A DNA stretch of 40,812 nt from an uncultured Candidatus Saccharibacteria bacterium (lineage in GTDB: Bacteria; Patescibacteriota; Minisyncoccia; Phycocordibacterales; EsbW-18), in contig CAZMAP010000002.1 of NCBI GenBank assembly GCA_964564385.1, positions 1 through 40,812 on the forward strand, given 5' to 3'. The notes under the pieces were generated by a model. That model was not told the DNA's origin, ran no database searches, and saw only the letters and a program-made list of their open reading frames with translations. This document shows, piece by piece, positions 984 to 40,784 of this stretch. The number at the start of each line of letters is the position of its first letter. Within the stretch, counting starts at the first letter, position 1. A program made the position numbers and the translations under genes.

Positions 984-1012
984 TTGACAGTTAAATGTTG
1001 CTAATGTACAGT
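984..1012 (+). promoter_or_regulatory. sigma70-like promoter TTGACA-17-TACAGT
   Basis: TTGACA at 984-989, a 17-nt spacer, and TACAGT at 1007-1012. It lies upstream of the GC-rich ORF. Confidence 0.5.
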
Positions 1013-1138
1013 ACTGTTGTACGTTCTTTCACAAGGAATTGCAAAATTGACCGTGGTTTTGAGACGACAAGACGTCGCCTTGCACGCTTGAAACCGCGGT
1101 CAATGAAGATGCGCGGTAACCAAAAGGAGGCACAGACC

Positions 1139-1792
1139 ATGTCTATCGACATGCTCGGTGGCCTGATCCAGAAGTTGCGTGGGGAGTGTATCCCCACACT
1201 CACGAGCCTCGTGGAGAAGCTCGCAGGCCGTCGCTGGCGGCGGACCCTTCGTGAGCTCAAGAAGTTCGTCCGTGAGGAGCCCTGCTGGGTTTCTCTGGTC
1301 GACGCCACCAAGCTCACCTTCGTCGCGAGCGCGACCACGACCATCGCCGCGATTCGCACCCTCTCGGTCGCGGCCTTCGCCACCACGGCCGAGGACACGG
1401 CGTCGCCCTTCGGGCTCCGCGACCTCTTGGTTGCCCTCAAGTCATGGGCGACCAAGAGATTTCGCGTCCAGGGCTACGACCTCCGCGAAGGGATGACCTT
1501 CGCGGAGATGATCGAAGCAGTGGGTGGTGAAGGGGAGATTCGCTCGAAGCACCTCTTCACTCGCGATCAGATTCGCGTGATCGTCGATCGGCAGGCGAAG
1601 GGAGAGGTGGGACCGTTGTACGTCAACGGCTGTACCAACTTCTTCTTCACGCTCGCTGAGGATGGCACATCGCTTGCGGTCGTGCGCGTCGGCTGGCTTG
1701 CCCACTACGGCTTCTGGGGCGTGTGGTCGGACTCGGCTTCGTACGGCAGCCACTGGCCCGCTGGTAATCGGCTGTTCCTCAGCGCTGCCTAG
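1139..1792 (+). CDS. Orphan protein, GC-rich cassette, paralogue family P (copy 1)
   Basis: The ATG at 1139 is preceded by AAAGGAGG, so the longer 995 start is unlikely. The C-terminal half aligns by eye with 24908..25489 (AEM..G..QI..TFF..VVR..W.AG.R) and more weakly with 13364..14008. Confidence 0.65.
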   Translation: MSIDMLGGLIQKLRGECIPTLTSLVEKLAGRRWRRTLRELKKFVREEPCWVSLVDATKLTFVASATTTIAAIRTLSVAAFATTAEDTASPFGLRDLLVALKSWATKRFRVQGYDLREGMTFAEMIEAVGGEGEIRSKHLFTRDQIRVIVDRQAKGEVGPLYVNGCTNFFFTLAEDGTSLAVVRVGWLAHYGFWGVWSDSASYGSHWPAGNRLFLSAA

Positions 1793-1833
1793 TGCTCAGG
1801 CATGTGCATCCCTTTCACTCTGCTCTTTGAACT

Positions 1834-1873
1834 CTGCCCCGAATCGCGGAAGCGAGGAGGGGCAGTTTCTTTT
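1834..1873 (+). terminator. Intrinsic terminator
   Basis: CTGCCCC...GGGGCAG stem followed by TTTCTTTT. Confidence 0.7.
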
Positions 1874-1955
1874 GAAAAGCTTTACCAAAAAATCCCAAAA
1901 CAGCCTGAACCTTGCCACTAAACGCAAGAAATGCTAGAGTGAGCTCTCCAAATAT

Positions 1956-2396
1956 ATGACACAAGCATCATTTAAAACCTCATCGGTCGACATGGACGCG
2001 CGCAAGGCGCTCTCATTCCGCACCGGCGACACCGTTCGTGTGTGGGTCAAGGTTGAAGAAAAGGGCAAGACCCGCCTCCAAGCTTTCGAAGGAACCGTTC
2101 TTGCTCGCAAGGGTGGTACTCAGGCGGGTGCTACGTTCACCGTCCGCCGCACAACTGGAGGTTTTGGTGTCGAAAAGATCTTCCCACTCTACGCTCCAAT
2201 GATTGACCGTGTCGAGGTTCTCCGCACTGTCACAATTCGTCGCAGCAAGCTCTACCATGTTCGCGACAAGGCAGCTCACGAAATCCGTCGCCAGATGCGC
2301 AAGATGCGCATTGTCGAGCAGGTTCCTGCAAGCAAGAAAGAAACTCCCGCAGCAGTAGAGGAAGCCCCAGAGACAGAAGAAACAAAGTCCGAATAA
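1956..2396 (+). CDS. rplS: 50S ribosomal protein L19 with a C-terminal acidic extension
   Basis: FRTGDTVRVWVKVEEKGKTRLQAFEGTVLARKG...FTVRR...VEKIFPLYAPMIDRVEV is a typical L19 core. A TTGCCA-17-TAGAGT promoter lies upstream, and a terminator at 2402-2427. Confidence 0.93.
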   Translation: MTQASFKTSSVDMDARKALSFRTGDTVRVWVKVEEKGKTRLQAFEGTVLARKGGTQAGATFTVRRTTGGFGVEKIFPLYAPMIDRVEVLRTVTIRRSKLYHVRDKAAHEIRRQMRKMRIVEQVPASKKETPAAVEEAPETEETKSE

Positions 2397-2457
2397 AGAG
2401 ACCCCGCCAGTGGCGGGGTTTTCTTTTGTCTCTTTCTGATGTATCGTGTCTTCCGAT

Positions 2458-2539
2458 GCCCAGGTGGCGGAATTGGTATACGCGTATGCTTGAGGTGCAT
2501 ATGCCGCAAGGCTTGGAGGTTCGAGTCCTCTCCTGGGCA
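2458..2539 (+). tRNA. tRNA-Leu (anticodon GAG), type II with long variable arm, no encoded CCA
   Basis: Acceptor GCCCAGG/CCTGGGC. Anticodon stem TATGC/GCATA with loop TTGAGGT. T-arm GGAGG-TTCGAGT-CCTCT. Confidence 0.88.
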
Positions 2540-2552
2540 CAAAAACAAAGGA

Positions 2553-3000: not shown

Positions 3001-3001
3001 T

Positions 3002-4497: not shown

Positions 4498-5373
4498 ATG
4501 TCTCCAGAAAACCCTCCAAATATTGATACCCCAGAAACCAAGTTACAAAAAGCCGAAAGAGAAACCTTTGAAGAGTTGCCGTTACAGCTAGGTCCGCATG
4601 GGGGCCTCCTTTTTAAGGATCCTACAAAGGGATTTGATCCAGAATACGAATATCTAAGTACTGAGCGGCTTTTTACAGATGCACCAAAATTTTGGGAAGA
4701 ACAACAAGCACTAGTAGAGAATAATGGGGCCTATAAGGCGTATCCATACAAGGTGCCGTTTACTGCGATTAAGAAATTACCAGAAGAACAACGAGGTAAG
4801 GAGATACTGGCACAACTAACCCTAGCGCGCAGCATACACAGTAGCTACATTGACTTGTCCAAAAACGAAAAGCGAGACCCCGGTGCAGTAATAGAGCTTG
4901 ATATACCAGAAGGATCAGCGCGAACGTGGTTCAAGTATTTATTTTTTGAGGACTGTTTTGCTCATCCGGGAACAGGCACGTTTTCCCAATTAAAAGATGT
5001 CTTATTTGAATTATCACAAGAGGAACAACAATCGGCACTTGAGTGGGCAGTTAGATATTCCTTAATACATGGAACTCACGCACGTACCCCTGGATTTTTC
5101 GCTAAAATTGATGCCCGAGACATTGTCGGTGTTTTTCTCGATGAAAGGTTCAAGGTCTTACAGAGTTTACTCAACCAGGACTATCTAGAATACCTATGGG
5201 CACGAGACCTCGATGACAATTTTAACTTGGATACACAAGAATATAGAACACTTACGGAATCTTTGGGAATGGATCCAGAAAAGATTCTTGCAAAAGCGCG
5301 AAAATGGAGTAATTCCCAGCGCCTAGTCAATAATATTCTTACATATTACCCGGAACTAAAAGACTCCGAGTAA
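4498..5373 (+). CDS. Orphan soluble protein in an AT-richer segment after tRNA-His
   Basis: Clean 291-aa ORF with no competing frames and no motif I recognise. It uses AT-rich codons (aaa, gaa, tta), unlike its neighbours. Confidence 0.6.
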   Translation: MSPENPPNIDTPETKLQKAERETFEELPLQLGPHGGLLFKDPTKGFDPEYEYLSTERLFTDAPKFWEEQQALVENNGAYKAYPYKVPFTAIKKLPEEQRGKEILAQLTLARSIHSSYIDLSKNEKRDPGAVIELDIPEGSARTWFKYLFFEDCFAHPGTGTFSQLKDVLFELSQEEQQSALEWAVRYSLIHGTHARTPGFFAKIDARDIVGVFLDERFKVLQSLLNQDYLEYLWARDLDDNFNLDTQEYRTLTESLGMDPEKILAKARKWSNSQRLVNNILTYYPELKDSE

Positions 5374-13184: not shown

Positions 13185-13213
13185 TTGACAAAGTCGACCA
13201 AAAGGCCTATAAT
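13185..13213 (+). promoter_or_regulatory. Perfect-consensus sigma70 promoter TTGACA-17-TATAAT
   Basis: TTGACA at 13185-13190 and TATAAT at 13208-13213. It is followed by a ~140-nt leader with the hairpin GGTTAGTT..GCTTTTA...TAAAAGC..AACTAACC. Confidence 0.7.
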
Positions 13214-13363
13214 GAACTCGGAAGCACTTTCAAAAGAACTACGGGTTAGTTGCGGCTTTTAGCGCATTTCTCGTGCCTTAAAAGCTGTAACTAACCTAGG
13301 CGAGCTCGAGGCCCGAACCGTTGTGGTGAGGGTGGGGAGCAAACCAAAAGAGGAGTAACGCAA

Positions 13364-14008
13364 ATGGCAAGCAAGCATGCCCCGAACGTCCTGATCTCGG
13401 CAGCGGGATGGCTGATGCAGTTCGTCAGTCTCCTGATCAAGGGCCTTCTGGCCCGGGGCTGGGACAGCGAGCGCATTCACGCGCTCGCCACCGACAAGGG
13501 TGCGGCGGACATGGAGCGCCTCGTCGAGGCGGTTCTCAACGCTTTCGCTGCGCCGCTGGCTCCCGTGATCGATCTCGCAACCGGCATCTGCCGATTTACG
13601 GTCGACTTCACGAAGACGCTCGAGGAGATGATCGCCGCCGGGAAGTACGACTGGCGGAACAACGTCATCACCTCACAGCTGTTCCCCATCGTCGGGAACG
13701 GTACGGTCGTCGTGGACGCCAAGCTGTTCCACTTCGGCCGCAGTACCACTTCCAACGAAGTCGAGCGCGAGCTCGAAACCGCCGGATACCGTTCGGCGAC
13801 CATCGCGGAACTCCTGGCTTTCGGGGCATCGTTCCCGGAAGTCCAGCGACAGTTCCCGGTGATCGCTCTCGGCTCCGTCACGAAGGTCAGTGGCGGCCGC
13901 AGCGTCCCGTGCCTCGTCCGGCACGGCGCGGAGCGGAGCCTCGACCTCGACTGGCGCGGCCGCGTCTGGGGCGACGCCTGTCGGATCCTGGCCGTTCGCA
14001 TCAAGTAG
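13364..14008 (+). CDS. Orphan protein, GC-rich cassette, paralogue family P (copy 2)
   Basis: SD AAGAGGAG lies upstream of the ATG. The C-terminal segment ATIAELLAFG...FPVIALGS...VPCLVR...DWRGRVWGDACRILAVR resembles copies 1 and 3. The overlapping ORFs in other frames are R/P-rich high-GC artefacts. Confidence 0.65.
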   Translation: MASKHAPNVLISAAGWLMQFVSLLIKGLLARGWDSERIHALATDKGAADMERLVEAVLNAFAAPLAPVIDLATGICRFTVDFTKTLEEMIAAGKYDWRNNVITSQLFPIVGNGTVVVDAKLFHFGRSTTSNEVERELETAGYRSATIAELLAFGASFPEVQRQFPVIALGSVTKVSGGRSVPCLVRHGAERSLDLDWRGRVWGDACRILAVRIK

Positions 14009-14069
14009 TTCTCTGGTTCTTGACCCTTTGCTTCGCCGTCAGGCGAATAGCACTCGGGTCTTGGACCTT

Positions 14070-14110
14070 CCCGGCGCAACCTACCAAGGTGGCGCCGGGC
14101 TTTCGTTTTT
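14070..14110 (+). terminator. Intrinsic terminator with GCTTTCGTTTTT tail
   Basis: CCCGGCGC(14070-14077)/GCGCCGGG(14092-14099), then CTTTCGTTTTT. Confidence 0.75.
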
Positions 14111-14111
14111 A

Positions 14112-14362
14112 TATAATTAAACCAACAGACGAAAAATCTAAGGTCACGGCTTTAGATAGTTTGTTCGCACGCTCGGGAGTGAGAGTTTCGACGGCTACGG
14201 TTGTCGGAAGGGTGTTTCCGAGTTCTGAATAAAAACCAGAGAAAGTTGGTGCGTTCGGGAATCCTGATTCACAAGAGTGACAGGGGACACTCCAGACTCC
14301 CGCTCTAGGGTGTGAGCCTTTCAGCCTGTCGACGCGCCGCGTCGGCGGGCTGTGCTGTTTTT
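14112..14362 (+). ncRNA. Candidate ORF-free transcript ending in a strong terminator
   Basis: It lies between two terminators, with TATAAT at 14112-14117. There is long-range pairing CGGGAGT/ACTCCCG. A 14-bp GC stem (14323-14336/14338-14351, two G-U pairs) is followed by a T-run to 14362. No credible ORF. Confidence 0.25.
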
Positions 14363-14610
14363 AAGAATGACTGAAAGTATTTTTTAGTAATACTACTTTC
14401 CAAACCAAGCTCACTAGAAGCGGCTTCGTGCTTTTCGTGCAAACACACAGTATGGCTAATCTTGCGGAGAATCAGTGTTCAAAATAAGAAGTTGGCTCGG
14501 GTCTTTTTGGGAACATTGGTACAACCCTTGACTTGTGGCGTGCTGTGCGGAGAATGGGCCTCGGACCATAGCCGCATAGCGTGCGGCACAGCGCAGGAAA
14601 GGAGTTGGAA

Positions 14611-15522
14611 ATGCAAGAGCAAGTGCTGGGGACACAACATCCGCTTGAGGGCCGTTTGTTCAGCCGGAGGACCTTTTCCAACTGGAAGGGGCGACTGGAA
14701 AAGGCGACGGAGGTAGATGAGATGGTGAGCCTGCTTTATGGTGGGTTCAGGCTCCACTCCTTGTCTCACGACGAGGAGAATGAGCGCCTTATCATCTACT
14801 TGAGTTATGCAGATGGTGGGCAGAGTAATCCTGCGAACGAGATAACCGAGAAGGCGTTTGCGGAACTTTCTCGCGTGTTCACGCTTCCGAAGGCCGGATC
14901 GGATAAGACACAGAGAATTATGTACTGGTTGTATCGGCTCTCCGAGCGTGATGTCTTCGGTAAATTCCTCTGGTTCTTCGATCCAAAACGTAACAACATC
15001 CCGCCTCGGTTCAGTCGGAGTCAGGCGCAAGGTGTTGTTGCAGAGTTTCTCGAGACGGTTCTTTCGGCACTGTCTCGCTGGGGTGACTACATTAGCCGCC
15101 CTTTGAATGTGGCTCAACTTTCTCACTACGAAGAGAGCGCCGTGATGTGGTCGGAGGCTCGCACCGCAATCATGGACATCATGGAAAGAAACGGCACTCT
15201 GCGTTCTCTCCACCCTGGACTGTGGAGGAAGGGCCCGACGCGACGCCATCTCAAGCACATGGCGTGCCGGAGTGTCTTTGGGTATTCCAAAGTCTCCGGC
15301 CCGATTATGAACGATTTTCTCTTGGCGCACGCACTCAAGGAAAACAACCAGGCAGCGTGGATCCTTGCCCGAGAGCATTTCGAGAGAAAACTGCGCGCCA
15401 GAGAGCTCTGGAAAGAGCGGAATGCGCGTCGTCGGGAGAGGAAGACGACGCTTCTGTCTGAGGTCAGGGAAGCGGAGGTTCGGCTCGAACTGGCACGAAG
15501 ACGAGTCGCGGGTCTTTCTTGA
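14611..15522 (+). CDS. Orphan protein (303 aa) with basic coiled-coil C-terminus, GC-rich cassette
   Basis: The ATG at 14611 is preceded by GGAAAGGAG. A promoter-like TTGACT(14528-14533)-16-GAGAAT lies upstream. No motif recognised. The antisense 299-aa ORF was rejected. Confidence 0.6.
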   Translation: MQEQVLGTQHPLEGRLFSRRTFSNWKGRLEKATEVDEMVSLLYGGFRLHSLSHDEENERLIIYLSYADGGQSNPANEITEKAFAELSRVFTLPKAGSDKTQRIMYWLYRLSERDVFGKFLWFFDPKRNNIPPRFSRSQAQGVVAEFLETVLSALSRWGDYISRPLNVAQLSHYEESAVMWSEARTAIMDIMERNGTLRSLHPGLWRKGPTRRHLKHMACRSVFGYSKVSGPIMNDFLLAHALKENNQAAWILAREHFERKLRARELWKERNARRRERKTTLLSEVREAEVRLELARRRVAGLS

Positions 15523-15667
15523 TCTACGGACCCTCCTGCAGTTCTTTTTTGGCTTGTCGGCAGGTTCGTCGGATTCTGGCTCGTCATTGACTGGCCTCCC
15601 GAGAGCCTCGTTCTGGTTCTGACGTCTCCTTTGGAGTCGTGAACCTAGTCTTCGACCTAGTTTTCTT

Positions 15668-15735
15668 GGGCACTACCGCCTACCACACCCGTTGGTGTAT
15701 CAGCGGGAGCCTCGCAGCGATGCGGGGCTTTTTGT
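15668..15735 (+). repeat. ~70-nt double-hairpin element, copy A
   Basis: GGGCACT.CCGCC.ACC...CCCGTTGGTGTATCA.CGGG.GCCTCGCA....TGCGGGGC + T-run. About 80 percent identical by eye to 25496-25567. Differences fall in loops or preserve pairing. Confidence 0.75.
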
Positions 15736-24783: not shown

Positions 24784-24808
24784 CGCAACTTTGGAATAAG
24801 CATACTGT
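24780..24808 (+). promoter_or_regulatory. Promoter-like TTGACG-17-TACTGT overlapping the pgk stop
   Basis: TTGACG at 24780-24785 and TACTGT at 24803-24808. Confidence 0.45.
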
Positions 24809-24907
24809 GTGCGCGGACGTGGTCTCTGAAACGGACACAAACAAATCAGTGGGCTCTGTCCCACACGGCCAATGGCCGAAACTTCGAGGGAGAAGGAGAA
24901 AAGATCT

Positions 24908-25489
24908 ATGGATCTCGTAAAGGAGTTGTTGGAGGGGGTGCTGCTAGCGGTGTTTCTTGCCGCACTCGTCATGCCGATCGTTTTCTGGATTCGGCGCCGG
25001 CGCAAGAAGACCAACCCAATCCTCGTTCGTTTGTACGAGAACGAGGAGATCGTGGTTGGCTCGACCACAGGTGAGGAGACAATCGCGAAGGCACGGCATG
25101 TCTTTGCTGGGTATCTCGACTCCGATTTCGAGCGCTGGGGCGCGAATGTTCCGAGTGGAACACCAACTGAACGGGCCAAGATCGCGGTGTATGAGGTGTG
25201 TCGTGATGCGAATTTGGCCGAGATGTTCGGTTCCATCGGCAATTTGAATTCGCACGCACTCTCTCAGGGGCAGATCCTCCGCTTCGTTCTGGAGCATAAC
25301 GACAAGTTGCAACCAGACGAACTTGCCACGTTCTTTCTCCTTCGGGTGGGGAGCGGGTTTCTGGTTGTGCGAATTTCCAAATTGCGGGGGGAGCTCGTGG
25401 AGCGACTTGAGCGTTTCGACGACCCAACTATCTGGAGGGGTGCGGGCCGGCGTCGGGTGGTCGTTGTCAAGGCTGGGTCGTCCAAGTAG
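24908..25489 (+). CDS. Orphan protein, GC-rich cassette, paralogue family P (copy 3), N-terminal TM anchor
   Basis: SD GGAGAAGGAG lies before the ATG at 24908. N-terminal LLAVFLAALVMPIVFWIRRRRKK. The C-terminal NLAEMFGSIG...QILRFV...TFFLLRVGSGFLVVRI...WRGAGRRRVVV aligns with copy 1. Confidence 0.65.
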   Translation: MDLVKELLEGVLLAVFLAALVMPIVFWIRRRRKKTNPILVRLYENEEIVVGSTTGEETIAKARHVFAGYLDSDFERWGANVPSGTPTERAKIAVYEVCRDANLAEMFGSIGNLNSHALSQGQILRFVLEHNDKLQPDELATFFLLRVGSGFLVVRISKLRGELVERLERFDDPTIWRGAGRRRVVVVKAGSSK

Positions 25490-25495
25490 TTCCTC

Positions 25496-25567
25496 GGGCA
25501 CTTCCGCCCACCTCGCCCGTTGGTGTATCAACGGGTGCCTCGCACGTTGTGCGGGGCGCTTTCGTTT
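25496..25567 (+). repeat. ~70-nt double-hairpin element, copy B (includes the terminator)
   Basis: See 15668-15735. Hairpins CCCGTT-ggtgtatc-AACGGG and CCTCGCA-cgttg-TGCGGGG, then CGCTTTCGTTT. Confidence 0.75.
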
Positions 25568-25602
25568 AATGGCCGATGCGTTGCCTCCGTAGGCGGGCGA
25601 TA

Positions 25603-25631
25603 TTGACGTATTGCAGATTTTGTAATATCAT
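25603..25631 (+). promoter_or_regulatory. Promoter-like TTGACG-17-TATCAT
   Basis: TTGACG at 25603-25608 and TATCAT at 25626-25631. Confidence 0.45.
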
Positions 25632-25667
25632 TTTTTCGAACCTGTTCGTTTAGAGAGGAGGAAGAGG

Positions 25668-25865
25668 ATGGGCAACCAAGGAATTTCTTTTGACGAGGGA
25701 CGTGGGGAGTTTGTTCTTCGTGATCTCGCGGGGAACACAACATACTATTCCGTCCGCGCGATGCAGCAGATCGTTCGCGAAGCGAACATGATCTTGCTCG
25801 GTCTTGCCGACGCGCCCCCGCCCACTCGTCGTGGCGGTGTGAAGGAACCCATCGTACACCACTGA
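25668..25865 (+). CDS. Small orphan protein (65 aa), own promoter and terminator
   Basis: SD AGAGAGGAGGAAGAGG lies before the ATG, and a terminator CCCCGCAC/GTGCGGGG lies at 25873-25906. The FV.R...G......A...h.E...hL pattern is shared with 26028..26237. Confidence 0.55.
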   Translation: MGNQGISFDEGRGEFVLRDLAGNTTYYSVRAMQQIVREANMILLGLADAPPPTRRGGVKEPIVHH

Positions 25866-25948
25866 CGGCCTAGCCCCGCACAAAACGTGCGGGGCGTTGT
25901 ATTTGTAAAACGCGCTTTTTTGAAGTGTTTTGTTGTGTTTGCATTGCA

Positions 25949-25977
25949 TTGACCGCTGACACGCGTCTGTGTATCCT
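25949..25977 (+). promoter_or_regulatory. Promoter-like TTGACC-17-TATCCT
   Basis: TTGACC at 25949-25954 and TATCCT at 25972-25977. Confidence 0.4.
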
Positions 25978-26027
25978 CGTGGCAGATGTTCACATTCGCG
26001 CATCGCGCGGAAAGGAGTGAAAACACA

Positions 26028-26237
26028 ATGAGTACGGATCGCAACGGTCCACGCGTGGCGTACCACTCTCGGGAGAAGATGTTCGTTGTTCGTGGCGACG
26101 ACGGTCGGCCCATTCGCCTCGACCGTTCGGGTGCCGAGGAAGTGCTCATGGAGCTCGGCCGGATGCTGGGAGAGGAGCGTGCTCTTGATGCGCGTTTGGC
26201 GCAAATAAAGCTCCTCGACACTATCTGCCAAAAGTGA
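26028..26237 (+). CDS. Small orphan protein (69 aa), weak paralogue of 25668..25865
   Basis: SD GAAAGGAG lies before the ATG at 26028. The similarity to the neighbouring small ORF is judged by eye. Confidence 0.5.
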   Translation: MSTDRNGPRVAYHSREKMFVVRGDDGRPIRLDRSGAEEVLMELGRMLGEERALDARLAQIKLLDTICQK

Positions 26238-26245
26238 TGTAGACG

Positions 26246-26512
26246 ATGCGACCCGCAAAGGTCGTCGTTCTCGAAAGGTCGGTGAGGCTTTCTCCAAAGC
26301 AAAAGGAGGAGTGCCGCCAATACGAGAGTCTCGTCAAGAGGATGTCTGTTCGGCAGCTTACTCGAGCAGAAATCGAGTTCCTCGATAAGCACGAGAATAC
26401 ATGCCTAGGACGACATTCGGCTCGTGCTCACGAGCGGGCGCTCGGTCTCACCCTTGGTGCCCTTGATCCTGGTGGAACGAGCGACCCGAAGAAGTTGCGC
26501 TCTGTCCGCTAA
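26246..26512 (+). CDS. Small orphan protein (88 aa), same transcription unit as 26028..26237
   Basis: It starts 8 nt after the upstream stop and has no SD of its own. A terminator lies at 26520-26555. Confidence 0.4.
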   Translation: MRPAKVVVLERSVRLSPKQKEECRQYESLVKRMSVRQLTRAEIEFLDKHENTCLGRHSARAHERALGLTLGALDPGGTSDPKKLRSVR

Positions 26513-26565
26513 TCAATAACCCCGTCTCGCTGTGCGCGAGGCGGGGTGCGTTTTTGTGGCGGCTT

Positions 26566-28671: not shown

Positions 28672-28728
28672 GAAGCGTATAAGATATCCGGATTTGTCGA
28701 GATTCCAACCCTTCCCATGGAGGACGCG

Positions 28729-28953
28729 ATGGAAAGTGAGCGATCAGCGGAACTGCTTCTCAGGCTTGCGAGGTGGCTCATCAACAAAGACGGGCTGCTT
28801 ACCACAAGGAGTCTTCAAGCCGCGTTCGATGAGGACGCGTCCTTGAGGCCACACTTCCCACAAGGCTTCCAGTTCGTCCTGCGGCAGCTTCTGCTGCGGG
28901 GCAACCTTCGAGAGGAGGTTGTTGACGGGATGAACGTTCTGGTCATCGTTTGA
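28729..28953 (+). CDS. Small orphan protein (74 aa), GC-rich mini-cassette
   Basis: GGAGG lies 5 nt before the ATG at 28729. A terminator GCCCCTTGC...GCAGGGGGC with a GGCTTTCGTTT tail ends at about 29018. Confidence 0.45.
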   Translation: MESERSAELLLRLARWLINKDGLLTTRSLQAAFDEDASLRPHFPQGFQFVLRQLLLRGNLREEVVDGMNVLVIV

Positions 28954-29037
28954 TCCGCCGATGAGCGTGAGAAGCCAACGCCCCTTGCAACCTTAACTGG
29001 CGCAGGGGGCGGCTTTCGTTTGGTATACTCAGGGAAC

Positions 29038-29802: not shown

Positions 29803-29830
29803 TTGACACACAGCGCTTTTTTGGTATAAT
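29803..29830 (+). promoter_or_regulatory. Extended -10 consensus promoter TTGACA-16-TGgTATAAT
   Basis: TTGACA at 29803-29808 sits in the loop of the mscL terminator. TATAAT is at 29825-29830, with TG at 29822-29823. Confidence 0.65.
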
Positions 29831-29879
29831 ACATCCAGACCATATACCCCGTCTTTGACGGGAGAGAGGAAGGAAGACC

Positions 29880-30359
29880 ATGAAGAACAGCAAGATGTTG
29901 CTGTGGGCGTTCATCGTGAGCGCCTGCATCACCATCGTGCAGTTTGCGATGGTGGCAATGGGGGCTGGGGAGGTCGCGTGGATCGGAGTGGTCGGGGTGG
30001 CGGCACTCACCGTCATCACGGTGTACATGCATCGGCCTGAGGGTCCAAGCATCGTACTCGCCATGTTTTCCGTGGCGGGACTGATCCTCGGTGGTGTGTT
30101 TCAGCTGGCGGGGAAAGAAGGGGTTCTCTTTGCTGCGGCGGCGCTGGTCGTGGCGCTGTTTGTGGAATCGAGGGCTTTGACTATGAGGAGCCGTCTCGAT
30201 GGTGCTCAAGGCCTCATGCTCATGCTGGGCATGATCATCGGGTGGCAGGTTAGCGCCACCTGGACGCTCATTCTCCTCGTTTCCTGGGTGTGGGCGCTCT
30301 TCCAGGAGCACCGCCGTGCCGCCAGGTGCGCACTCCCCACGGCTTCGACAGGTACCTGA
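29880..30359 (+). CDS. Orphan 4-TM membrane protein, GC-rich cassette
   Basis: SD GAGAGGAAGGAAG. Four hydrophobic helices. A terminator CCCCGCC/GGCGGGG lies at 30390-30431. Confidence 0.6.
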   Translation: MKNSKMLLWAFIVSACITIVQFAMVAMGAGEVAWIGVVGVAALTVITVYMHRPEGPSIVLAMFSVAGLILGGVFQLAGKEGVLFAAAALVVALFVESRALTMRSRLDGAQGLMLMLGMIIGWQVSATWTLILLVSWVWALFQEHRRAARCALPTASTGT

Positions 30360-30445
30360 CCTCCAACCTCTCGCTCCGCTCTTTCTTCACCCCGCCCGAG
30401 CTCGCTCGTGGCGGGGGTTGTGCTTTTATCTTCTCTTCATGACAT

Positions 30446-33384: not shown

Positions 33385-33466
33385 AAGATAGGGAAGGACG
33401 CAAACCACCCCGTACAGAAATGTGCGGGGTGGTTTGTTTATGTAATGTTTAAACAGTCTGTAAAGA

Positions 33467-33494
33467 TTGACTTATGTTTTATAGTTGCTATAAT
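33467..33494 (+). promoter_or_regulatory. Near-consensus promoter TTGACT-16-TATAAT
   Basis: TTGACT at 33467-33472 and TATAAT at 33489-33494. Confidence 0.65.
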
Positions 33495-33552
33495 CCAAAA
33501 TGGATGATCGGCGAATGTCTCGCCCTTCACAATTCAGTGCGGGAGGAGTCAC

Positions 33553-35373
33553 ATGTTTCTGTTGATCGCGTTTTTGTCCGCTCTCGTCGGCGCGTTGCCA
33601 CTTTTCCTTCGTGGAAAAGTGGGGGCCGCCATCTGGGCCGCTTGCGGCTATGGTGTCGTGAACACCGTCCTCTTCTACGTGTCGTGTCCGTCTCTGGCCT
33701 ATCCGATTTTCGGCGGGGTCGGCTTCATGACCCTCATCTGGCTTTTCGTTTCAGCCGGAATCGACGGGTCTGGCGACTACGGCTTCGAGCTCACGACGTC
33801 CGCCTGGGCACCCATCGTGCTTCTGGCCGCGTTCATTCTCGTGCTCGCCGGTTCGTGCAGTATGTTCCGATCGGACGACTACTATCGCCTGATCGGGGAC
33901 GTTGAGAAGCGCGAGTGGACGAAGGATGTCCAGCCCAAGGATCCCAGGCACGTCCGTCTGGTCCCTGAGAAGTTGGCCTATTACCTCGCTACCAAGCAGT
34001 TGGGTGAGGCCGGCGGCGCCATCGGTAGCCAGTTCTCGGTCTCCGAGAACAGTCTGACGCTCCAGGAGTTCCACGGCGAACTCTGGTACGTGGCTCCGCT
34101 CGAGTTCAAAGGCTTCAGTGTCTGGACTTCTGCGGATGTCACGCCGGGCTTCGTCATGGTTCACGGCGAGGACCCCAACCGCCCGGCAATCGTGAAGACC
34201 GGACACCAGTTCCGTTTCATGGAGAGCGCGTACTTCGGCGACAACGCTGAGCGCCACCTCTGGAAGGACGGCTACTGGAACAAGGTTCTCTCGGATTGGA
34301 CGTTCGAGATCAACGAGGAGGGCAAACCCTTCTGGGTGGTTACGGTTTCCAAACCGACCATCGGATGGGGAGGCTCTAAAGTTCTCGGCGTCGTGGTCAT
34401 GGATCCGACGAGCGGTGAACACACGTTCTACGCCGTTGGGTCGGTCCCGAAGTGGATCGACCGCGTGTATCCGAGTCACATCGTCTCCAACTACATCAGC
34501 AATTGGGGGCGGTTCGCCTCAGGATGGTGGAACAGTTTTTGGGGCAAGAAGGACATCATGAAGCCCGAGGAGCCGAACATCATCTACGGTGCAGATGGCG
34601 ATCCGTACTGGGTCACCGGCCTGACGTCGACCAACATCAAGGACAACTCCATGGTTGGCCTGATGTACACCAACAGCAGGACCGGTAAGTCGGTCCGGTA
34701 TCACGCTGTCGGCGGCACGGACGAAGCGGTCATCGAGTTGGTCAACAACAAGGTGGCCTACCAGAAGTTGAGCGGCGCTGCGCCGGTTCTGTACAACATC
34801 TACGGAGAGATGACCTCGATCGTGCCTCTCCTCGGTGAGAGTCACACGTTTCAGGGAGTTGCGTTCGTCGATGTGCGGAACATGCGTCTCGTCGTCGGTA
34901 AGGACCAGGAAGACGCCGCCCGTCAGTACCAGGAACTTCTTGCTACGAGCGGTCAGCAGTTGGCTCCCGAGAAGTCGCGCGATTCGGTCGAGAAGGAATT
35001 TCAGATCGACCGAATTTCGGCGGCGAGTGAGAACGGTACGACGGTGTACTATCTCTACGTCGCGAAGGAGCGCCACATCTTCACGGGTACGAGGAAGGTT
35101 TCCTCGGAACTCGTCGTGACGCAGCCCGGCGACCACGTCCGCGTTCGGTATGTGAATTCGGGCGAAGGTGTCATGCCGATTCTGAGTCTCAAGAATCTCG
35201 ACATCCTCATCGAACAGACCGACGTGCAGCGGCAGTTGGCCGAGCGCGTCGAGTCCAGGAAGGATGAGGTGTCGCTTTCCGAAGAGGGGAGGTCGGCACG
35301 CGGAAGGTTGGAGGAGATGACCGACGAAGAAATCGGGAGACTCCTCCAGAAGCTTGACAACGAGAAGAAGTAG
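33553..35373 (+). CDS. Orphan 606-aa membrane protein (N-terminal ~4 TM, large extracytoplasmic domain, C-terminal coiled coil), GC-rich cassette
   Basis: SD GGGAGGAG. The ORF is uninterrupted with protein-like composition. A terminator lies at 35423-35453. No family assigned. Confidence 0.7.
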   Translation: MFLLIAFLSALVGALPLFLRGKVGAAIWAACGYGVVNTVLFYVSCPSLAYPIFGGVGFMTLIWLFVSAGIDGSGDYGFELTTSAWAPIVLLAAFILVLAGSCSMFRSDDYYRLIGDVEKREWTKDVQPKDPRHVRLVPEKLAYYLATKQLGEAGGAIGSQFSVSENSLTLQEFHGELWYVAPLEFKGFSVWTSADVTPGFVMVHGEDPNRPAIVKTGHQFRFMESAYFGDNAERHLWKDGYWNKVLSDWTFEINEEGKPFWVVTVSKPTIGWGGSKVLGVVVMDPTSGEHTFYAVGSVPKWIDRVYPSHIVSNYISNWGRFASGWWNSFWGKKDIMKPEEPNIIYGADGDPYWVTGLTSTNIKDNSMVGLMYTNSRTGKSVRYHAVGGTDEAVIELVNNKVAYQKLSGAAPVLYNIYGEMTSIVPLLGESHTFQGVAFVDVRNMRLVVGKDQEDAARQYQELLATSGQQLAPEKSRDSVEKEFQIDRISAASENGTTVYYLYVAKERHIFTGTRKVSSELVVTQPGDHVRVRYVNSGEGVMPILSLKNLDILIEQTDVQRQLAERVESRKDEVSLSEEGRSARGRLEEMTDEEIGRLLQKLDNEKK

Positions 35374-35489
35374 CGCTGAGGTGTTCATTGTGCCGGTGTG
35401 GCGAATTCGCCACGCCGTCATGGCCGCCAGCCCTAGGCTGGCGGTTTTCTTTTACCCCAATCTCATCTCCACCACGGTACACTGTGCCC

Positions 35490-36772: not shown

Positions 36773-36881
36773 GCCTGTGAATGTAACCCCTTGCGGGGAG
36801 GGCCGAAGCCATTGTCACAATGTCAGTATAGAAAAGTGAAACGAACTGTCAATTTTGAGCAAAACAGATTTTATCAAGCGC

Positions 36882-37139: not shown

Positions 37140-37206
37140 ATGTTTTATCGAGATTTGAACTTTAGCATGGATTATATCGAGCATCAAGGAGATAGGTGAT
37201 TACCCG

Positions 37207-37639
37207 AAGCTCCAAATTCCATGGTCACAAAATCCAACTAAATTCCAATGACTGAAACCCAAAACAAAAAGCCGTATGATCTCGGGGAAAGAACGTTTGC
37301 TTTTGCAAAAGAAATCCGCGAGATTTGCAGGGTTACACCAAAAACACCTCTTAATATTGATGATATAAAGCAGCTCGTTAGATCTTCGGGTTCAGTCGGA
37401 GCTAATTACATCGAAGCGAATGAAGCGCTCTCAAAGAAGGATTTTATCCATAGGATTGGGATATGCCGAAAAGAATCGAAAGAGAGCGGGTACTGGATCC
37501 GTCTATTGTTTGGTGATGATCAAAAGGCAAAAGACATGTTTCAGGAGTCAAAAGAGCTCGTAAAGATATTCAATGCTATTATTATGTCTAAGAAATAAAT
37601 TGGTTTTGGAATTTAGTTGGATTTTGGAATCTGGAGCTT
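37207..37639. mobile_element. Four-helix-bundle gene cassette bracketed by ~35-42-nt terminal inverted repeats
   Basis: 37229-37248 is the perfect reverse complement of 37606-37625 (20 nt). 37207-37220 pairs with 37626-37639 with one mismatch. The left arm has an 8-nt bulge. Confidence 0.6.
37248..37598 (+). CDS. Four-helix bundle protein (23S rRNA intervening-sequence protein family)
   Basis: FAFAKEI......LVRSSGSVGANYIEANEA.SKKDFIHRIGICRKESKES.YWIRLL is typical of the family. Confidence 0.8.
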   Translation: MTETQNKKPYDLGERTFAFAKEIREICRVTPKTPLNIDDIKQLVRSSGSVGANYIEANEALSKKDFIHRIGICRKESKESGYWIRLLFGDDQKAKDMFQESKELVKIFNAIIMSKK

Positions 37640-38995: not shown

Positions 38996-39005
38996 TTAGT
39001 TTATT

Positions 39006-39047
39006 AGTTCTTTGGTTTGTTGGTTTAAACCAATCAACCAAAGAACT
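39006..39047. promoter_or_regulatory. 42-nt near-perfect palindrome in the rpsL-rpsG intercistronic region
   Basis: AGTTCTTTGGTTTGTTGGTTT/AAACCAATCAACCAAAGAACT with 2 mismatches. A third complementary segment AACCAACAAACCAAG (about 39053-39067) abuts the rpsG ATG. Confidence 0.6.
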
Positions 39048-39068
39048 AAACAACCAACAAACCAAGCC

Positions 39069-39560
39069 ATGCGTCGTCCTCTCAAAGAAAAACAGAAACA
39101 CCCAGCGATTAAAGACCGCGCATATGATTCTGCAACGGTCACAAAGCTCATCAATTACGTCATGATTGGCGGCAAGAAGTCGACTGCACAACGTGCCGTC
39201 TACGACGCGCTCGAAGAAATCAAAAAGGCAGGCAACGCAGACCCCGCGGCACTTCTCGAGACAGCAATCCAAAACGTTGCTCCCACCATGGAGGTCCGTT
39301 CACGTCGCGTCGGTGGTGCCAACTATCAGGTTCCGTTTCCAGTTCGTCCTGAACGTCAGCTCGCATTGTCGCTCCGTTGGATTCTTGGTGGCGTCCGCAG
39401 CAAAAAGGGCGCTTCGTTTGGCACACGTCTTGCCAACGAGCTCATGCTTGCAAGCAAGGGAGAAGGGGAGGCAATGAAAAAGCGCGAAGCAGTGCACCGT
39501 ATGGCAGAAGCCAACAAGGCATTCGCTCACTTTGCTTTCAGCCGAACGCAGAAGAAGTAA
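39069..39560 (+). CDS. rpsG: 30S ribosomal protein S7
   Basis: GKKSTAQRAVYDAL, EVRSRRVGGANYQVP and KKREAVHRMAEANKAFAHF. Confidence 0.93.
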   Translation: MRRPLKEKQKHPAIKDRAYDSATVTKLINYVMIGGKKSTAQRAVYDALEEIKKAGNADPAALLETAIQNVAPTMEVRSRRVGGANYQVPFPVRPERQLALSLRWILGGVRSKKGASFGTRLANELMLASKGEGEAMKKREAVHRMAEANKAFAHFAFSRTQKK

Positions 39561-39676
39561 GGCGACAATCGAAACTTTCAATAGCAATGAAAAGCACCCA
39601 AGAGGGTGTTTTTCTGTTATAAAACCAAGATAAAATCTCTGGTTGCGGGGGTCGAACGGGGGAGTATGATTCGGGT

Positions 39677-40021
39677 ATGAAAAAGGAACCGGTAACACTC
39701 GAAAAGGTCGCGACTAACGTCGAAGAAGTTGCCAGCAAGGTCGACTCACTTGCCTCGAAGGTGGATTCCCTTACCTCGACTGTTACAGAACTGGCCGAAG
39801 CAACCTATAACGGTTTTGCTCGTGTTCAAGAAACTCTTGCGACAAAAGCCGACAAGACCGATATTGCACGGCTCGACAAACGTATCGACAAAACAGATGA
39901 GAATATCAGGTATCTCCGCCTAAAAGTCGATGACGTTCACGAAGAGCTTCGCGGATTCACATCTGATGTTCGTGATGAGCTTTCCACGCGGATTACGGTT
40001 CTCGAAAAGAAGCAGGTGTAG
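39677..40021 (+). CDS. Hypothetical coiled-coil protein
   Basis: 114-aa ORF with heptad-like repeats (KVDSLASKVDSLTSTV). No motif recognised. Confidence 0.5.
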   Translation: MKKEPVTLEKVATNVEEVASKVDSLASKVDSLTSTVTELAEATYNGFARVQETLATKADKTDIARLDKRIDKTDENIRYLRLKVDDVHEELRGFTSDVRDELSTRITVLEKKQV

Positions 40022-40028
40022 TCCAAGG

Positions 40029-40051
40029 TTGTCAAAACAGCCTTGCGTGCT
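40029..40051 (+). repeat. 23-nt direct repeat, copy 1 (TTGTCAAAACAGCCTTGCGTGCT)
   Basis: Identical to 40785-40807. Here it is followed by GGTGCG, with no -10 box. Confidence 0.9.
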
Positions 40052-40784
40052 GGTGCGTCGTTGCCCGTGGGGATGTCAAGCTATTGAACCATTACGTGTA
40101 TATTGACATATGAGGTTTTTTATATATATTCTCGAGTAGAAAATAACCCTCCGCATTATGGAGAGAAAGTGAGAGAAGGGGTCATGAAGAAGATTCTCGG
40201 TTGGGCGATTCTGGCGGTCGTCCTGGTGACGGCACTGTACTTCGGGGCACTGGCCGCCGGAGTGCCAGACGACGTTGCGATCACCTGCTTCATCGGTGTA
40301 GTTGTGTTCCTCATCTGCACCGAAACCGTGTTCGTCGATAGCCTTTGGCTCGCCAACATTTTTCGGCAACCCATCGCCTCCGTCTACAAGTCCACTATCA
40401 TCACTAGTTGTATCCTTGTAGCGCTCTTTGCCGGCATCAGCTTCTTTGGCGATACGTCGCTTCAGGAAGCCGTTCTGGCGCTCTACGGCTTCCTTCTCTT
40501 CGGAGGACCTGTCTTTGCGTTCATGACTGCTTCCAACTACAAGGACAGAGTGGGTTTGGTGTTCTTCGCACATCTCGTCGGCATCGGCGGCATCTGTGGT
40601 GTTGTCGAGTTGCGTACCTGGTGGCCCGCGGCCATCGCGGTCGTGATTCTCGGCGTGTGGTGGTTCATCCTCCACGTTGCCGAGAGGATCGAGAAGATCA
40701 CTCCGGCCGCAGTGTGACCAGCCCCATCGTTCCTTCCGAACCCCCGACATGGCTGCACGCCTGTCGGGGGGTTTGCATAACTGA
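40052..40784 (+). mobile_element. 733-bp insertion cassette (promoter, membrane-protein ORF, terminator) bounded by the 23-nt direct repeat
   Basis: Internal promoter TTGACA(40103-40108)-16-TATATT, the ORF 40184..40717, and a terminator at 40741-40774. No recombinase is encoded. Confidence 0.55.
40184..40717 (+). CDS. Orphan multi-TM membrane protein, GC-rich cassette
   Basis: SD GAGAGAAGGGG lies before the ATG at 40184. There are 5-6 hydrophobic helices. No motif recognised. Confidence 0.6.
   Translation: MKKILGWAILAVVLVTALYFGALAAGVPDDVAITCFIGVVVFLICTETVFVDSLWLANIFRQPIASVYKSTIITSCILVALFAGISFFGDTSLQEAVLALYGFLLFGGPVFAFMTASNYKDRVGLVFFAHLVGIGGICGVVELRTWWPAAIAVVILGVWWFILHVAERIEKITPAAV

Follow-up and report, generated by a model that had tools for sequence, protein, structure and literature searches.

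Variable gaps between conserved genes of a Patescibacteria chromosome carry heterogeneous inserts, including putative orphan DGR targets

The window analysed here, a whole stretch of 40.8 kb, is a strongly collinear part of a chromosome of the Paceibacteria type (Patescibacteria/CPR) from a tiny genome. Its backbone genes are devoid of Shine-Dalgarno (SD) motifs and often appear leaderless, and the window also encodes the DNA-uptake machinery ComEC, PilB, and PilC. A preliminary description had pointed out eight inserts, labelled C1 to C8, and all of them were found where it placed them, with conserved genes on both sides. Together they carry 11 cargo genes (C1, C2, C3, C4a to C4d, C5, C6, C7, and C8), with the following features.

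984..1873, + strand: C1 unit, with promoter 984-1012 (TTGACA-17-TACAGT), SD AGGAGG, ORF 1139-1792 (217 aa), and hairpin terminator
13185..14253, + strand: C2 unit, putative orphan DGR variable-protein gene, with perfect promoter 13185-13213 and ORF 13364-14008
13220-13363, + strand: C2 leader, with a 20-bp hairpin (13243-13297) containing G.U pairs
13871-13999, + strand: C2 stretch equivalent to a VR
14032-14047, + strand: C2 post-stop hairpin TTCGCC-GTCA-GGCGAA
14099-14108, + strand: C2 terminator tail GCTTTCGTTT, with a conserved spacer (14111-14253) beyond
14254..15735, + strand: C3 region, with a fragment that has a strong hairpin terminator (14322-14352)
14611-15522, + strand: C3 ORF, 303 aa, SD-led, with a weak promoter (14528-14555)
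15523-15661, + strand: decayed 3' end of a C4a-like gene after C3
15662-15716, + strand: copy of the C4a 3' flank after C3, a 55-nt repeat, 85% identical, with a terminator beyond
24784..26565, + strand: C4 compound insert, in the gap where the stop codons of pgk and HIT converge
24872-25489, + strand: C4a ORF, of a DGR-target-type family, with 3' flank 25490-25567
25603-25895, + strand: C4b, with promoter 25603-25631, ORF 25668-25865, and terminator 25873-25895
25949-26237, + strand: C4c, with promoter 25949-25977 and ORF 26028-26237
26246-26547, + strand: C4d, with ORF 26246-26512 and terminator 26519-26547
28672..29021, + strand: C5 unit, with ORF 28717-28953 (78 aa) and a hairpin terminator ending in GCTTTCGTTT (29012-29021)
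29803..30431, + strand: C6 unit, with perfect extended promoter 29803-29830 and ORF 29880-30359 (159 aa), a predicted multi-pass membrane protein
33441..35454, + strand: C7 unit, with promoter 33467-33494, SD GGAGG, ORF 33553-35373 (606 aa), and terminator 35422-35446
40029..40807, + strand: C8 unit, insert of 733 bp (40052-40784), promoter TTGACA-16-TATATT, and ORF 40184-40717 (177-aa membrane protein)

Gaps were compared between taxa that differ at the level of species to genus, not strains, and the sites of C1, C2/C3, and C8 could each be set against few or distant relatives. Among the four comparable inserts, C4, C5, C6, and C7 are all missing from the eight closest relatives, so that the same ORFs do not stand in the same place throughout the group; the flanking genes are collinear, and the corresponding gaps are empty or differently filled. 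Empty sites in the relative L004 measure -7 to 2 bp at Pgk|HIT, varying with the calling of the convergent gene ends, 166-176 bp at MscL|ComEC, and 4-71 bp at hydrolase|ComEC-MBL. At these three gaps, as at RecJ|RNaseH and 479aa|TpiA, cargo differs between the same conserved neighbours, and many RecJ-anchored relatives keep synteny with varying gap content. Presence/absence polymorphism is observed directly, with exact junctions for C7 and C8. Comparison with the L004 empty site places C7 exactly behind the terminator T-tract of the gene upstream. On either side of C8 lies a perfect direct repeat of 23 nt (40029-40051 and 40785-40807) that corresponds to the -35 box and spacer of the fusA promoter and is single-copy at the empty site of L008. 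The target duplication announced earlier is therefore real and copied from the fusA promoter, and at least one insert, C8, bears an insertion scar. Close homologues of C2 occupy at least four different chromosomal gaps. The gaps between operons are probably hot spots that hold different accessory genes in different lineages.

It is scarcely credible that the inserts are assembly chimeras. The contig does end 5 nt beyond the second copy of the C8 repeat, and two Logan contigs stop 43 nt past C4a; however, independent assemblies reproduce the C2-C3 context (L001-L003), another one (L173) spans from C7 across the C8 junction into fusA, and most insert proteins are present on 3-7 contigs.

Insert and backbone genes also differ in their observed expression architecture. 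A promoter scan of positions 1-40000 with a threshold of at least 10/12 gave six promoter-like sites on the + strand, five of which lie upstream of insert genes (984, 13185, 25603, 29803, and 33467), and a separate scan scored C8 at 11/12 and C5 at 10/12. The near-consensus promoters attributed to the inserts are thus present, those of C2 and C6 being perfect and perfect extended, respectively; they are not exclusive to inserts, since a perfect extended-consensus promoter at 32712 serves a backbone gene. An SD motif, also part of the preliminary description, precedes 8 of the 11 insert genes vs. none of the 26 backbone genes of the window (Fisher p=4e-6), and in relatives the corresponding counts are 13/28 and 2/59. 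The GC hairpins said to end the inserts do so, but backbone genes likewise end in GC hairpins, which makes this feature not distinctive. The terminator tail common to three inserts was recovered as well: GCTTTCGTTT occurs at 14099, 25558, and 29012, with 0.18 occurrences expected. As the same tail is found in the flank of a DGR target in the relative L084, it is linked to a family. We consider it probable that every accessory gene is transcribed autonomously, from a near-consensus sigma-70 promoter, with an SD leader and its own terminator.

Three of the inserts lead to families of DGR variable proteins, which are a known class and abound in Patescibacteria. The C2 protein is 69% identical to the target of L084, in which VR (6087-6215) and TR (6574-6702) are 88% identical, all mismatches inspected fall at TR adenines, the pattern that marks a DGR target, and bAvd and RT adjoin the pair. 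In L042, two C4a-like targets and one TR flank bAvd and RT; in L015, the Pgk|HIT gap, which C4 occupies in the window, contains a full DGR; and VR/TR pairs were also found for homologues in L015, L044, and L047. The C2 homologues of L181 and L182 are followed by a TR-like copy and bAvd, and the last ORF, uncharacterised and cut by the contig end, lies at the position of the RT. Other lineages have partial DGRs, with target and TR only (L176) or target and bAvd only (L169), which represent intermediate decay. Patescibacteria DGRs form clade 2 (Roux et al., 2021, PMC8144416; see also Paul et al., 2017, as cited in PMC10221324), and CPR DGR targets reportedly have no recognisable domains and modular N-termini (PMC8144416).

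C4a matches the L042 targets with E=4e-25. The C1 protein belongs to a family of ~210 aa, A3, with a hypervariable W..W..AG.RVF C-terminus, whose HMM matches the verified L042 targets (4e-8). C1 and C4a are linked to each other only transitively, and both reach verified targets through profile or transitive matches. C2 is separate from the C1 family by sequence (hhalign probability 13%), and the three-member family proposed at first is not confirmed as such. Membership of DGR-target families is thereby observed, C2 being tied to a first verified family and C1 and C4a, as far as sequence comparison goes, to a second one. The predicted structure of C2 (pLDDT 89.8) has C-type lectins, the fold expected around a DGR variable region, as almost all of its top PDB matches, but these are weak (E 0.03-0.5, TM ~0.45), and a viral structure library gave nothing further for this model. 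The C1 leader, 120 nt long, contains a long hairpin at ~1046-1104 (z=-3.2).

Within the 40.8 kb, none of the insert 3' ends recurs in a second copy that could be a TR, and tblastn and phmmer with the RT and bAvd of L084 as queries found neither RT nor Avd; C1, C2, and C4a are thus orphan targets. They would still be active if a DGR on another contig supplied TR RNA and RT in trans and rewrote the 3' end of C2, and perhaps those of C1 and C4a, which we regard as unlikely. Such activity would agree with the 3' flank of C2 (14009-14253), ~94% identical, by manual count from the alignment, to that of the working L084 target. It would also agree with the post-stop hairpin, whose L084 counterpart, AACGCC-CTCA-GGCGTT, has two pairs altered on both sides in a compensatory manner. 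DGR target recognition is reported to involve a hairpin 3' of the VR, in which structure matters over sequence (PMC3240598), and the C2 stem fits a structure-dependent hairpin of this type. Moreover, DGRs with two targets do exist in relatives (L042). On the other hand, three independent samples have one and the same C2 sequence, and a sister variant of C1 differs only outside the variable region, which favours frozen rather than active targets; the window is devoid of TR, and decayed DGRs are common in relatives.

The composition of the insert genes deviates as previously described, with a median GC3 of 0.69 vs. 0.55 in the 26 backbone genes of the window (Mann-Whitney p=1.2e-5) and enrichment of CTG, GAG, and AAG alike. 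The GC-rich set is partly a matter of the first selection, since other variable inserts of the window are GC-poor.

4498-5985: GC-poor variable insert
36380-36772: MazF/PemK-like toxin, GC-poor variable insert absent from the preliminary list
37248-37598: four-helix-bundle gene, GC-poor variable insert absent from the preliminary list
Between the last two (region 36380-37626), - strand: ribosomal protein L28 gene

A perfect 21-nt inverted repeat (37228-37248 and 37606-37626) brackets the four-helix-bundle gene. In the target families, high GC3 holds in every host (higher in 17/17 cases, in hosts of 37-52% GC), and the adjoining RT and Avd genes match the host. In AT-rich relatives the target genes stay GC3-rich and their leaders match the host, the leader GC of L042 being equal to host GC. 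As a trait of the target families, high GC3 is not proof of recent foreign origin. Likewise, the C2 block matches L084 at 81% nucleotide identity, above the 74% of pilB, but common GC3 bias and constraint may account for this, rather than recent transfer.

This independence from host GC would suit vertically inherited, lineage-specific genes that never were insertions, their composition being due to expression level or gene-specific selection and their absence elsewhere to loss in the relatives. We find this improbable: the GC3 of ribosomal protein genes is backbone-like despite their high expression, C8 sits between duplicated pieces of a fusA promoter, C7 was added exactly behind a terminator, and close C2 homologues lie in different gaps. 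It is slightly less probable again that the inserts are DNA of a host or neighbour that entered via ComEC and type IV pili and became fixed through illegitimate recombination. The uptake machinery of the window, the atypical composition, gene starts led by an SD in an otherwise SD-less genome, and one C2 homologue in Bradyrhizobium point that way. Yet the named homologues of C2 and C7 are nearly all from Patescibacteria, C4a homologues lie within Patescibacteria loci, and GC3-richness across hosts deprives composition of value as a donor signature; for the capture of foreign DNA first suggested, there is no positive evidence of a host as the source.

The other inserts are heterogeneous. Nothing was found for the cargo in Pfam, PADLOC, PHROGs, or NCBIfam, in line with the claim of no recognisable domains, but C1, C2, and C7 have 112, 54, and >231 homologue clusters, respectively. 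C7, with >230 full-length Patescibacteria homologues, is a widespread conserved family of membrane-anchored, beta-rich proteins, not an orphan; its predicted structure has membrane helices at the N-terminus, a beta-rich domain resembling a propeller, and a helical tail at the C-terminus. C3, C4b to C4d, C5, C6, and C8 have no homologue in the sequences searched. The small proteins C4b and C4c and the membrane proteins C6 and C8, both pairs presented as paralogues, have no detectable similarity. The leaderless RNase H gene has its -10 box immediately next to the C5 unit, and C6 stands in place of a long palindromic intergenic element of L004 and L008. For C8, an insertion sequence or MITE was considered and rejected: the direct repeat is 23 nt long, where such elements have a short target duplication, a reading of the insert ends gave no terminal inverted repeats, the sole ORF encodes the membrane protein and not a transposase, and no other copy was found in 2.4 Mb of related loci.

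No integrase, transposase, or recombinase was found in the 40.8 kb, in agreement with the preliminary description: the window translations include no recombinase-like ORF, and Pfam/NCBIfam scans of 24 of them named none. It is very improbable that all eight inserts belong to one integron- or transposon-like cassette-mobilising system with a recombinase encoded elsewhere. A common architecture, the terminator tail of three inserts, and the direct repeat of one are what such a system might leave; however, the insert ends share no imperfect inverted repeat, terminal repeat, or attC-like site, the tail is family-linked, cargo is heterogeneous, and junctions differ (23-bp repeat at C8, none at C7, replacement at C6). 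What stands of the cassette-type accessory system is that the inserts are lineage-specific, with their own expression signals, deviant composition, and no mobility gene. The eight inserts are not one mobile family, consisting instead of three stranded DGR targets, one widespread membrane-protein family, and a remainder without relatives.

The explanation that we favour, with reasonable though not high confidence, is that of variable gaps holding heterogeneous self-expressed units, among them three orphan DGR targets and the widespread family of C7. C2, and by family C1, C4a, and the decayed copy after C3, would be proteins of ~200 aa with a variable C-terminal domain, of the sort that in relatives are targets of CPR-type DGRs (target, TR, bAvd, RT) in the same kind of gaps. 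The orphan targets would then be frozen ligand-binding variants or, with lower probability, sequences that a DGR elsewhere in the genome rewrites in trans. Gain, loss, and exchange of units may proceed mainly through recombination that follows DNA uptake, the window encoding ComEC and type IV pilus proteins, with occasional illegitimate insertion, as C8 with its 23-bp duplication suggests.

Several known systems bear comparison. The three genes resemble DGR targets: their products are short, lack Pfam domains, and have a variable C-terminal domain, and a hairpin follows the stop codon. They differ in that the TR and the RT, the latter normally adjacent and usually accompanied by Avd, are missing from the window, as is Avd. 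Long structured 5' leaders, SD-led starts in an SD-less genome, and GC3 enrichment over the whole gene go without mention in the available portions of PMC8144416 and PMC3240598. Integron gene cassettes are similarly small, variable, single-gene units, but they have attC, depend on IntI and attI, are usually promoterless, and form arrays, whereas the window units are scattered and have their own promoters; with no attC, integrase, or array in the window, this assignment was rejected. Phage morons are autonomous promoter-gene-terminator units among conserved phage genes, often of deviant composition. The inserts share with them the one-gene unit, complete with promoter and terminator, among conserved genes, and the deviant composition; a prophage moron was rejected, the neighbours being clade-conserved housekeeping genes and no PHROG match falling below E=0.06. 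In the minimal mobile elements of Neisseria, differing genes lie between the same neighbours and are exchanged by transformation and homologous recombination. The window is alike in its varied cargo within the same conserved gene pairs, its lack of a mobility gene, and its encoded uptake machinery; exchange by transformation is part of the Neisseria system, of which the machinery alone is seen here, and the window units differ further in that each has strong expression signals of its own.

The window, an entire contig of 40,812 bp with 52.5% GC, carries nearly all of its genes on the + strand, and an Rfam scan of it returned two tRNAs and nothing else. Its recognisable genes include the following.

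RluA, L19, tRNA-Leu, tRNA-His, a GH18 protein, DsbB and SIMPL
PilB, PilC and pilin-like genes
TpiA, Pgk, HIT (- strand), RecJ, RNase H and MscL
ComEC Competence-domain gene, SodA (- strand), a cell-wall hydrolase and a separate ComEC metallo-beta-lactamase (MBL) gene
L28 (- strand), S2P protease, RpsL and RpsG

ComEC is split into a DUF4131+Competence gene (30446-31912) and the MBL gene (35490-36341). Between them lie SodA, the hydrolase gene and the insert C7; relatives show the same split, with SodA and the hydrolase gene likewise in between. The first bases of the contig (1-52) begin within the 3' end of a tRNA-like sequence, whose downstream tail (ACAAAxACAAAGGAGC) matches the sequence after tRNA-Leu (2518-2554). 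At 2831-2977, about six copies of a 21-nt tandem repeat, with an acidic-rich 7-aa periodicity, are placed upstream of, or at the start of, a DUF2914 membrane protein gene.

All eight inserts of the preliminary description (C1 to C8) were found where it placed them. A RecJ-anchored scan of species-representative genomes recovered Patescibacteria/Parcubacteria (Paceibacteria-type) MAGs, with RecJ identities of about 90% for the loci L004 and L008, 60% for the next relatives and then about 54%. In a metagenome scan with PilB, the closest relative did not exceed 71% identity. Hence, the left half of the window, with the sites of C1 and C2/C3, is compared only with distant relatives. The gene order from PilB to RpsG is kept in the eight closest relatives, and the four ORFs of the compound insert C4 (C4a to C4d), C5, C6 and C7 are absent from all eight. 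In L004, the sites are essentially empty: Pgk and HIT abut or slightly overlap (-7 to 2 bp, depending on gene-end calls), and the gaps measure 166-176 bp between MscL and ComEC and 4-71 bp between the hydrolase and ComEC-MBL genes. In other relatives, different, unrelated ORFs fill these gaps. Some gaps are empty in the window but filled elsewhere; that between 479aa and TpiA, for example (about 31 bp in the window), holds inserts of about 1 kb in L004 and L008. The operon-internal junctions TpiA-Pgk, HIT-RecJ and RNase H-MscL are tight in most relatives. The ORFs of about 210 aa found in the 479aa-TpiA gap (L004 5822-6454, L008 6405-7079) are only 42% identical, unlike the backbones of the two loci, which are about 90% identical. 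Both end in a W...W.F.G motif, so they are possibly additional, rapidly evolving members of the same class of proteins.

Two junctions are seen at nucleotide level. C7 (33441-35454) is a clean addition between the terminator T-tract of the hydrolase gene and ACCCCAATCTC, which directly adjoin each other in L004. The 23-nt target duplication ascribed to one insert is confirmed as a perfect repeat flanking C8. It corresponds to the -35 box and spacer of the fusA promoter and is single-copy in L008, directly after the rpsG terminator. The concern about assembly chimeras is dismissed for two stretches, since an independent assembly (L173) spans C7, C8 and fusA, and three others reproduce the C2-C3 context. 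The rpsL-rpsG-fusA cluster is broken by two inserted genes, X114 (coiled-coil, 39677-40021) and C8 (window 39561-40812, L173 5494-6700), while in L008 fusA directly follows rpsG; the fusA leader has a hairpin followed by a T-run and is attenuator-like.

The nature of part of the cargo emerges from C2, for which 54 homologue clusters were found. In the related locus L084, a C2 homologue (69% identical) lies between PilB and PilC, with a Y1 transposase gene as neighbour; bAvd and an RVT_1 reverse transcriptase (RT) come after the homologue. The last 129 nt of the homologue are repeated 487 nt downstream with 88% identity, and the mismatches read in the alignment all fall at adenines of the downstream copy. 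Such a repeat pair is the signature of a diversity-generating retroelement (DGR), in which a template repeat (TR) corresponds to a variable region (VR) of a target gene. The 3' end of C2 aligns with both L084 copies. Moreover, three close homologues (P0003, P0005, P0006) are near-identical before the variable stretch and highly divergent inside it. AlphaFold models C2 with confidence (pLDDT 89.8), and the top PDB matches of this model, which are weak, are almost all C-type lectin folds, the fold found in all solved DGR variable proteins (PMC5006420, PMC6328139). Profile searches with the C2 and C7 families against PDB sequences gave no match.

The C2 block (13218-14253) aligns at about 80% with L084, L181/L182 and L176, and in all four the alignment breaks off at 14253 of the window, about 100 nt short of the TR of those loci. 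The 245 nt 3' of the C2 stop codon are about 94% identical to L084, as counted from the alignment, and the post-stop hairpin shows two compensatory pair changes between the two sequences. A noncoding stretch of about 140 nt, from the target terminator to the TR region (window 14111-14253, L084 6324-6466, also L176, L181 and L182), is about 94% conserved, which exceeds the coding sequence; this stretch possibly belongs to the DGR RNA or to its promoter. RNA-mediated spread, prompted by the start of C2 homology at the transcription start, was considered and found unnecessary, since unconstrained promoter spacers would be saturated at such divergence.

Two further inserts lead to the same kind of gene. 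C4a has only two homologues in a large database, and it matches two genes of the AT-rich locus L042 (E=4e-25 and 6e-15), placed on either side of bAvd and RT and each ending in a VR matching a single TR. C1 (true start 1139) has 112 homologue clusters and a hypervariable W..W..AG.RVF end, and its family HMM also matches the L042 targets (4e-8, 4e-7). Because both reach these targets, C1 and C4a would, on sequence similarity, form one superfamily that includes proven DGR targets. C2 probably represents a second, separate family, since profile-profile hhalign with the C1 family was not significant; hhalign of the C2 family with a single C1 or C4a sequence was not significant either. Pairwise BLASTP among the three proteins linked only C1 and C4a (E=0.013). 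Thus, the cargo family said to occur three times is kept for C1 and C4a, linked transitively, and C2 falls outside it by sequence. The other proposed paralogies, of the small proteins C4b/C4c and of the multi-TM proteins C6/C8, could not be upheld, no similarity being detectable. All-against-all BLASTP of the window ORFs revealed no insert paralogy except a 16-aa match from a shared 3' flank. A decayed C4a-like C-terminus lies at 15523-15661, just after C3 and in the same frame, and is followed by a copy of the sequence that trails C4a:

25490-25544, 55-nt repeat trailing C4a
15662-15716, copy of the 55-nt repeat, 85% identical

Two independent Logan contigs (L171, L172) both end 43 nt after the C4a stop codon, within this repeat, which suggests an assembly break there or population heterogeneity downstream of C4a.

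The remaining cargo is heterogeneous. C7 has more than 231 full-length homologues (40-71% identity) in unrelated neighbourhoods, mostly from Patescibacteria among those with a named source. Its model combines N-terminal membrane helices with a beta-rich, propeller-like domain, for which Foldseek returned only generic beta-propeller matches (TM below 0.3), none informative. C3, C4b-d, C5, C6 and C8 are singleton or near-singleton 90% clusters, with no relative in 2.36 Mb of related loci. The insert proteins had been described as devoid of recognisable domains. Indeed, nothing significant was found in Pfam, PADLOC, PHROGs or NCBIfam, but C1, C2 and C7 have large homologue families.

C1, C2 and C4a are therefore DGR-target-type genes without a retroelement. 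The window contains no TR, Avd or RT, and a search for TR copies of the 3' end of each insert, run on the window and on all fetched loci, gave none for the window. Relatives cover every stage of DGR decay: full DGRs (L084, L015, L042, L044, L047, L123), a target with the TR alone (L176), a target with bAvd alone (L169) and a bare target (the window, L178, L179). L181/L182 hold a target, a TR-like copy, bAvd and then an uncharacterised ORF cut by the contig end. Close C2 homologues sit in different gaps (SIMPL-PilB, PilB-PilC, IleRS-RecO, beside FtsA, PemK-GatC), so the C2 unit is mobile with respect to the backbone. Similar gaps, including Pgk-HIT in L015, hold the full DGRs of relatives. Frozen rather than active targets are favoured, because three samples share an identical C2 and the changes in a C1 variant all lie outside the variable end.

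Composition sets the inserts apart as announced. Median GC at third codon positions (GC3) is 0.69 in 11 insert ORFs vs. 0.55 in 26 backbone ORFs (p=1.2e-5), and CTG, GAG and AAG are enriched. However, the term GC-rich applies only to the subset first picked and not to all variable DNA, given the GC-poor variable inserts at 4498-5985 and at the MazF-like toxin and four-helix-bundle genes. Target-family genes exceed the long ORFs of their host loci in GC3 in 17 of 17 cases (mean +0.19). In L042, target GC3 is 0.68 vs. 0.29 for the host, and the adjoining RT and bAvd genes, like the leader GC, are host-like. The enrichment spans the whole target gene, third-position adenine being 5-11% in most. 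A simple expression-linked codon bias is an unlikely cause, because ribosomal protein genes have backbone-like GC3. A DGR-specific avoidance of adenine is rejected, since C6, C7 and C8 are equally poor in third-position adenine; a C7 homologue is likewise GC3-rich in its own host. The deviant composition is thus no donor signature, and GC3 that tracks the family and not the host cautions against taking such deviance as proof of recent foreign origin.

Two GC-poor genes lie near L28. The MazF/PemK-like toxin gene (36380-36772), with no obvious antitoxin partner, is absent in L004 and L008 and has homologues in L026, L037, L074 and L149. Between L28 and this gene, a stretch of only about 50-80 nt on the - strand is framed by an 11/12 promoter-like site (36852-36825) and a terminator-like hairpin (36776-36749); the element (36749-36852) may be a small antisense/antitoxin RNA or a bidirectional terminator. 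A perfect 21-nt inverted repeat (37228-37248 and 37606-37626) flanks the four-helix-bundle gene, whose family (TIGR02436) is known from intervening sequences of 23S rRNA. L004 and L008 lack the gene, which L007 has at the same place.

Expression signals also differ. A Shine-Dalgarno (SD) sequence precedes 8 of 11 insert genes vs. 0 of 26 backbone genes (Fisher p=4e-6). Conversely, a -10-like hexamer lies 4-12 nt before the start codon of 12 of 20 backbone genes vs. 0 of 11 insert genes, suggesting that backbone mRNAs are mostly leaderless. Examples of the leaderless type are seen at 26961-26989, 29021-29038 and 22835-22853. In relatives, SD-like motifs precede 2 of 59 conserved anchors vs. 13 of 28 gap ORFs. 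The strongest + strand promoter sites do mostly precede inserts, but one perfect extended promoter (32712) serves a conserved backbone gene. The shared terminator tail, GCTTTCGTTT, occurs three times in the window vs. 0.18 expected.

In different genomes, 11 of 17 target-family genes have a near-consensus promoter followed by a leader of 100-185 nt with a 16-21-bp hairpin. Such hairpins occur in L084, L042, L123, L013, L006, L157 and L025 and in the window:

13243-13297, leader hairpin of C2
about 1046-1104, leader hairpin of C1

C4a is without a long hairpin leader. The z-scores are -3.6 for C2 (antisense -1.8; its stem includes G.U pairs), -3.2 for C1 and between -4.5 and -7.1 for relatives; a plain DNA palindrome scan missed the stems containing G.U pairs. 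The hairpin structure persists, but hairpin sequences differ from gene to gene, the stems having almost no common sequence, and several leaders have AGCTTTTAG...TTAAAAGCTGT in common. The hairpins have no match in Rfam. A covariance model would be uninformative, because stems share so little sequence that any long hairpin would match.

Altogether, inter-operon gaps are polymorphic and their units autonomous, with a promoter, leader and SD design unlike that of the backbone. The inserts are real, yet they are a mixture and no new mobile family. A dedicated cassette system, as first envisaged, finds no support in an element-encoded recombinase or a shared end sequence. Units would rather turn over by uptake of DNA that recombines in the conserved flanks, given the ComEC, PilB and PilC genes of the window, with occasional illegitimate insertion, as may have been the case for C8. 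A broader reading, tentative and rather doubtful as a whole, is that of a Patescibacteria-wide circulating pool of self-expressing, GC3-rich single-gene modules hopping between inter-operon gaps without an element-encoded recombinase. These modules would combine a consensus promoter, an SD and a terminator, in many cases with a long structured leader, would be adenine-poor at synonymous sites whatever the host GC, would encode surface/ligand-binding proteins, including DGR targets with or without retroelement, and would reside in otherwise leaderless, SD-less, collinear genomes. If so, distinct translation initiation and conserved leader hairpins would give the accessory genome a regulatory layer of its own.

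Patescibacteria combine tiny, collinear genomes with a life attached to other cells; hence, the best candidates for genes that determine host contact are the few that vary. The window locates this variability in the gaps between operons, and much of it is made up of DGR-type binding proteins stripped of their retroelement. If genome-wide, the split between SD-led and leaderless genes and the family-linked GC3 may be of use in gene finding and in detecting accessory genes.

The ideas of moron-like units and of variable loci flanked by conserved genes are not new. Orphan targets spread over housekeeping gaps, the split between SD-led and leaderless genes, host-independent GC3 enrichment and conserved leader hairpins are each provisionally novel, being unmentioned in the passages of the literature that were searched. 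The enrichment of DGRs and of domain-less targets in Patescibacteria is already described in earlier work (PMC8144416, PMC10221324). DGR targets have also been presented as modular (PMC8144416), which is matched by the protein P0244, where a C2-type N-terminus is fused to a C1-type C-terminus. Finally, the post-stop hairpin of C2 is similar to the structure-dependent hairpin that DGR target recognition requires (PMC3240598).
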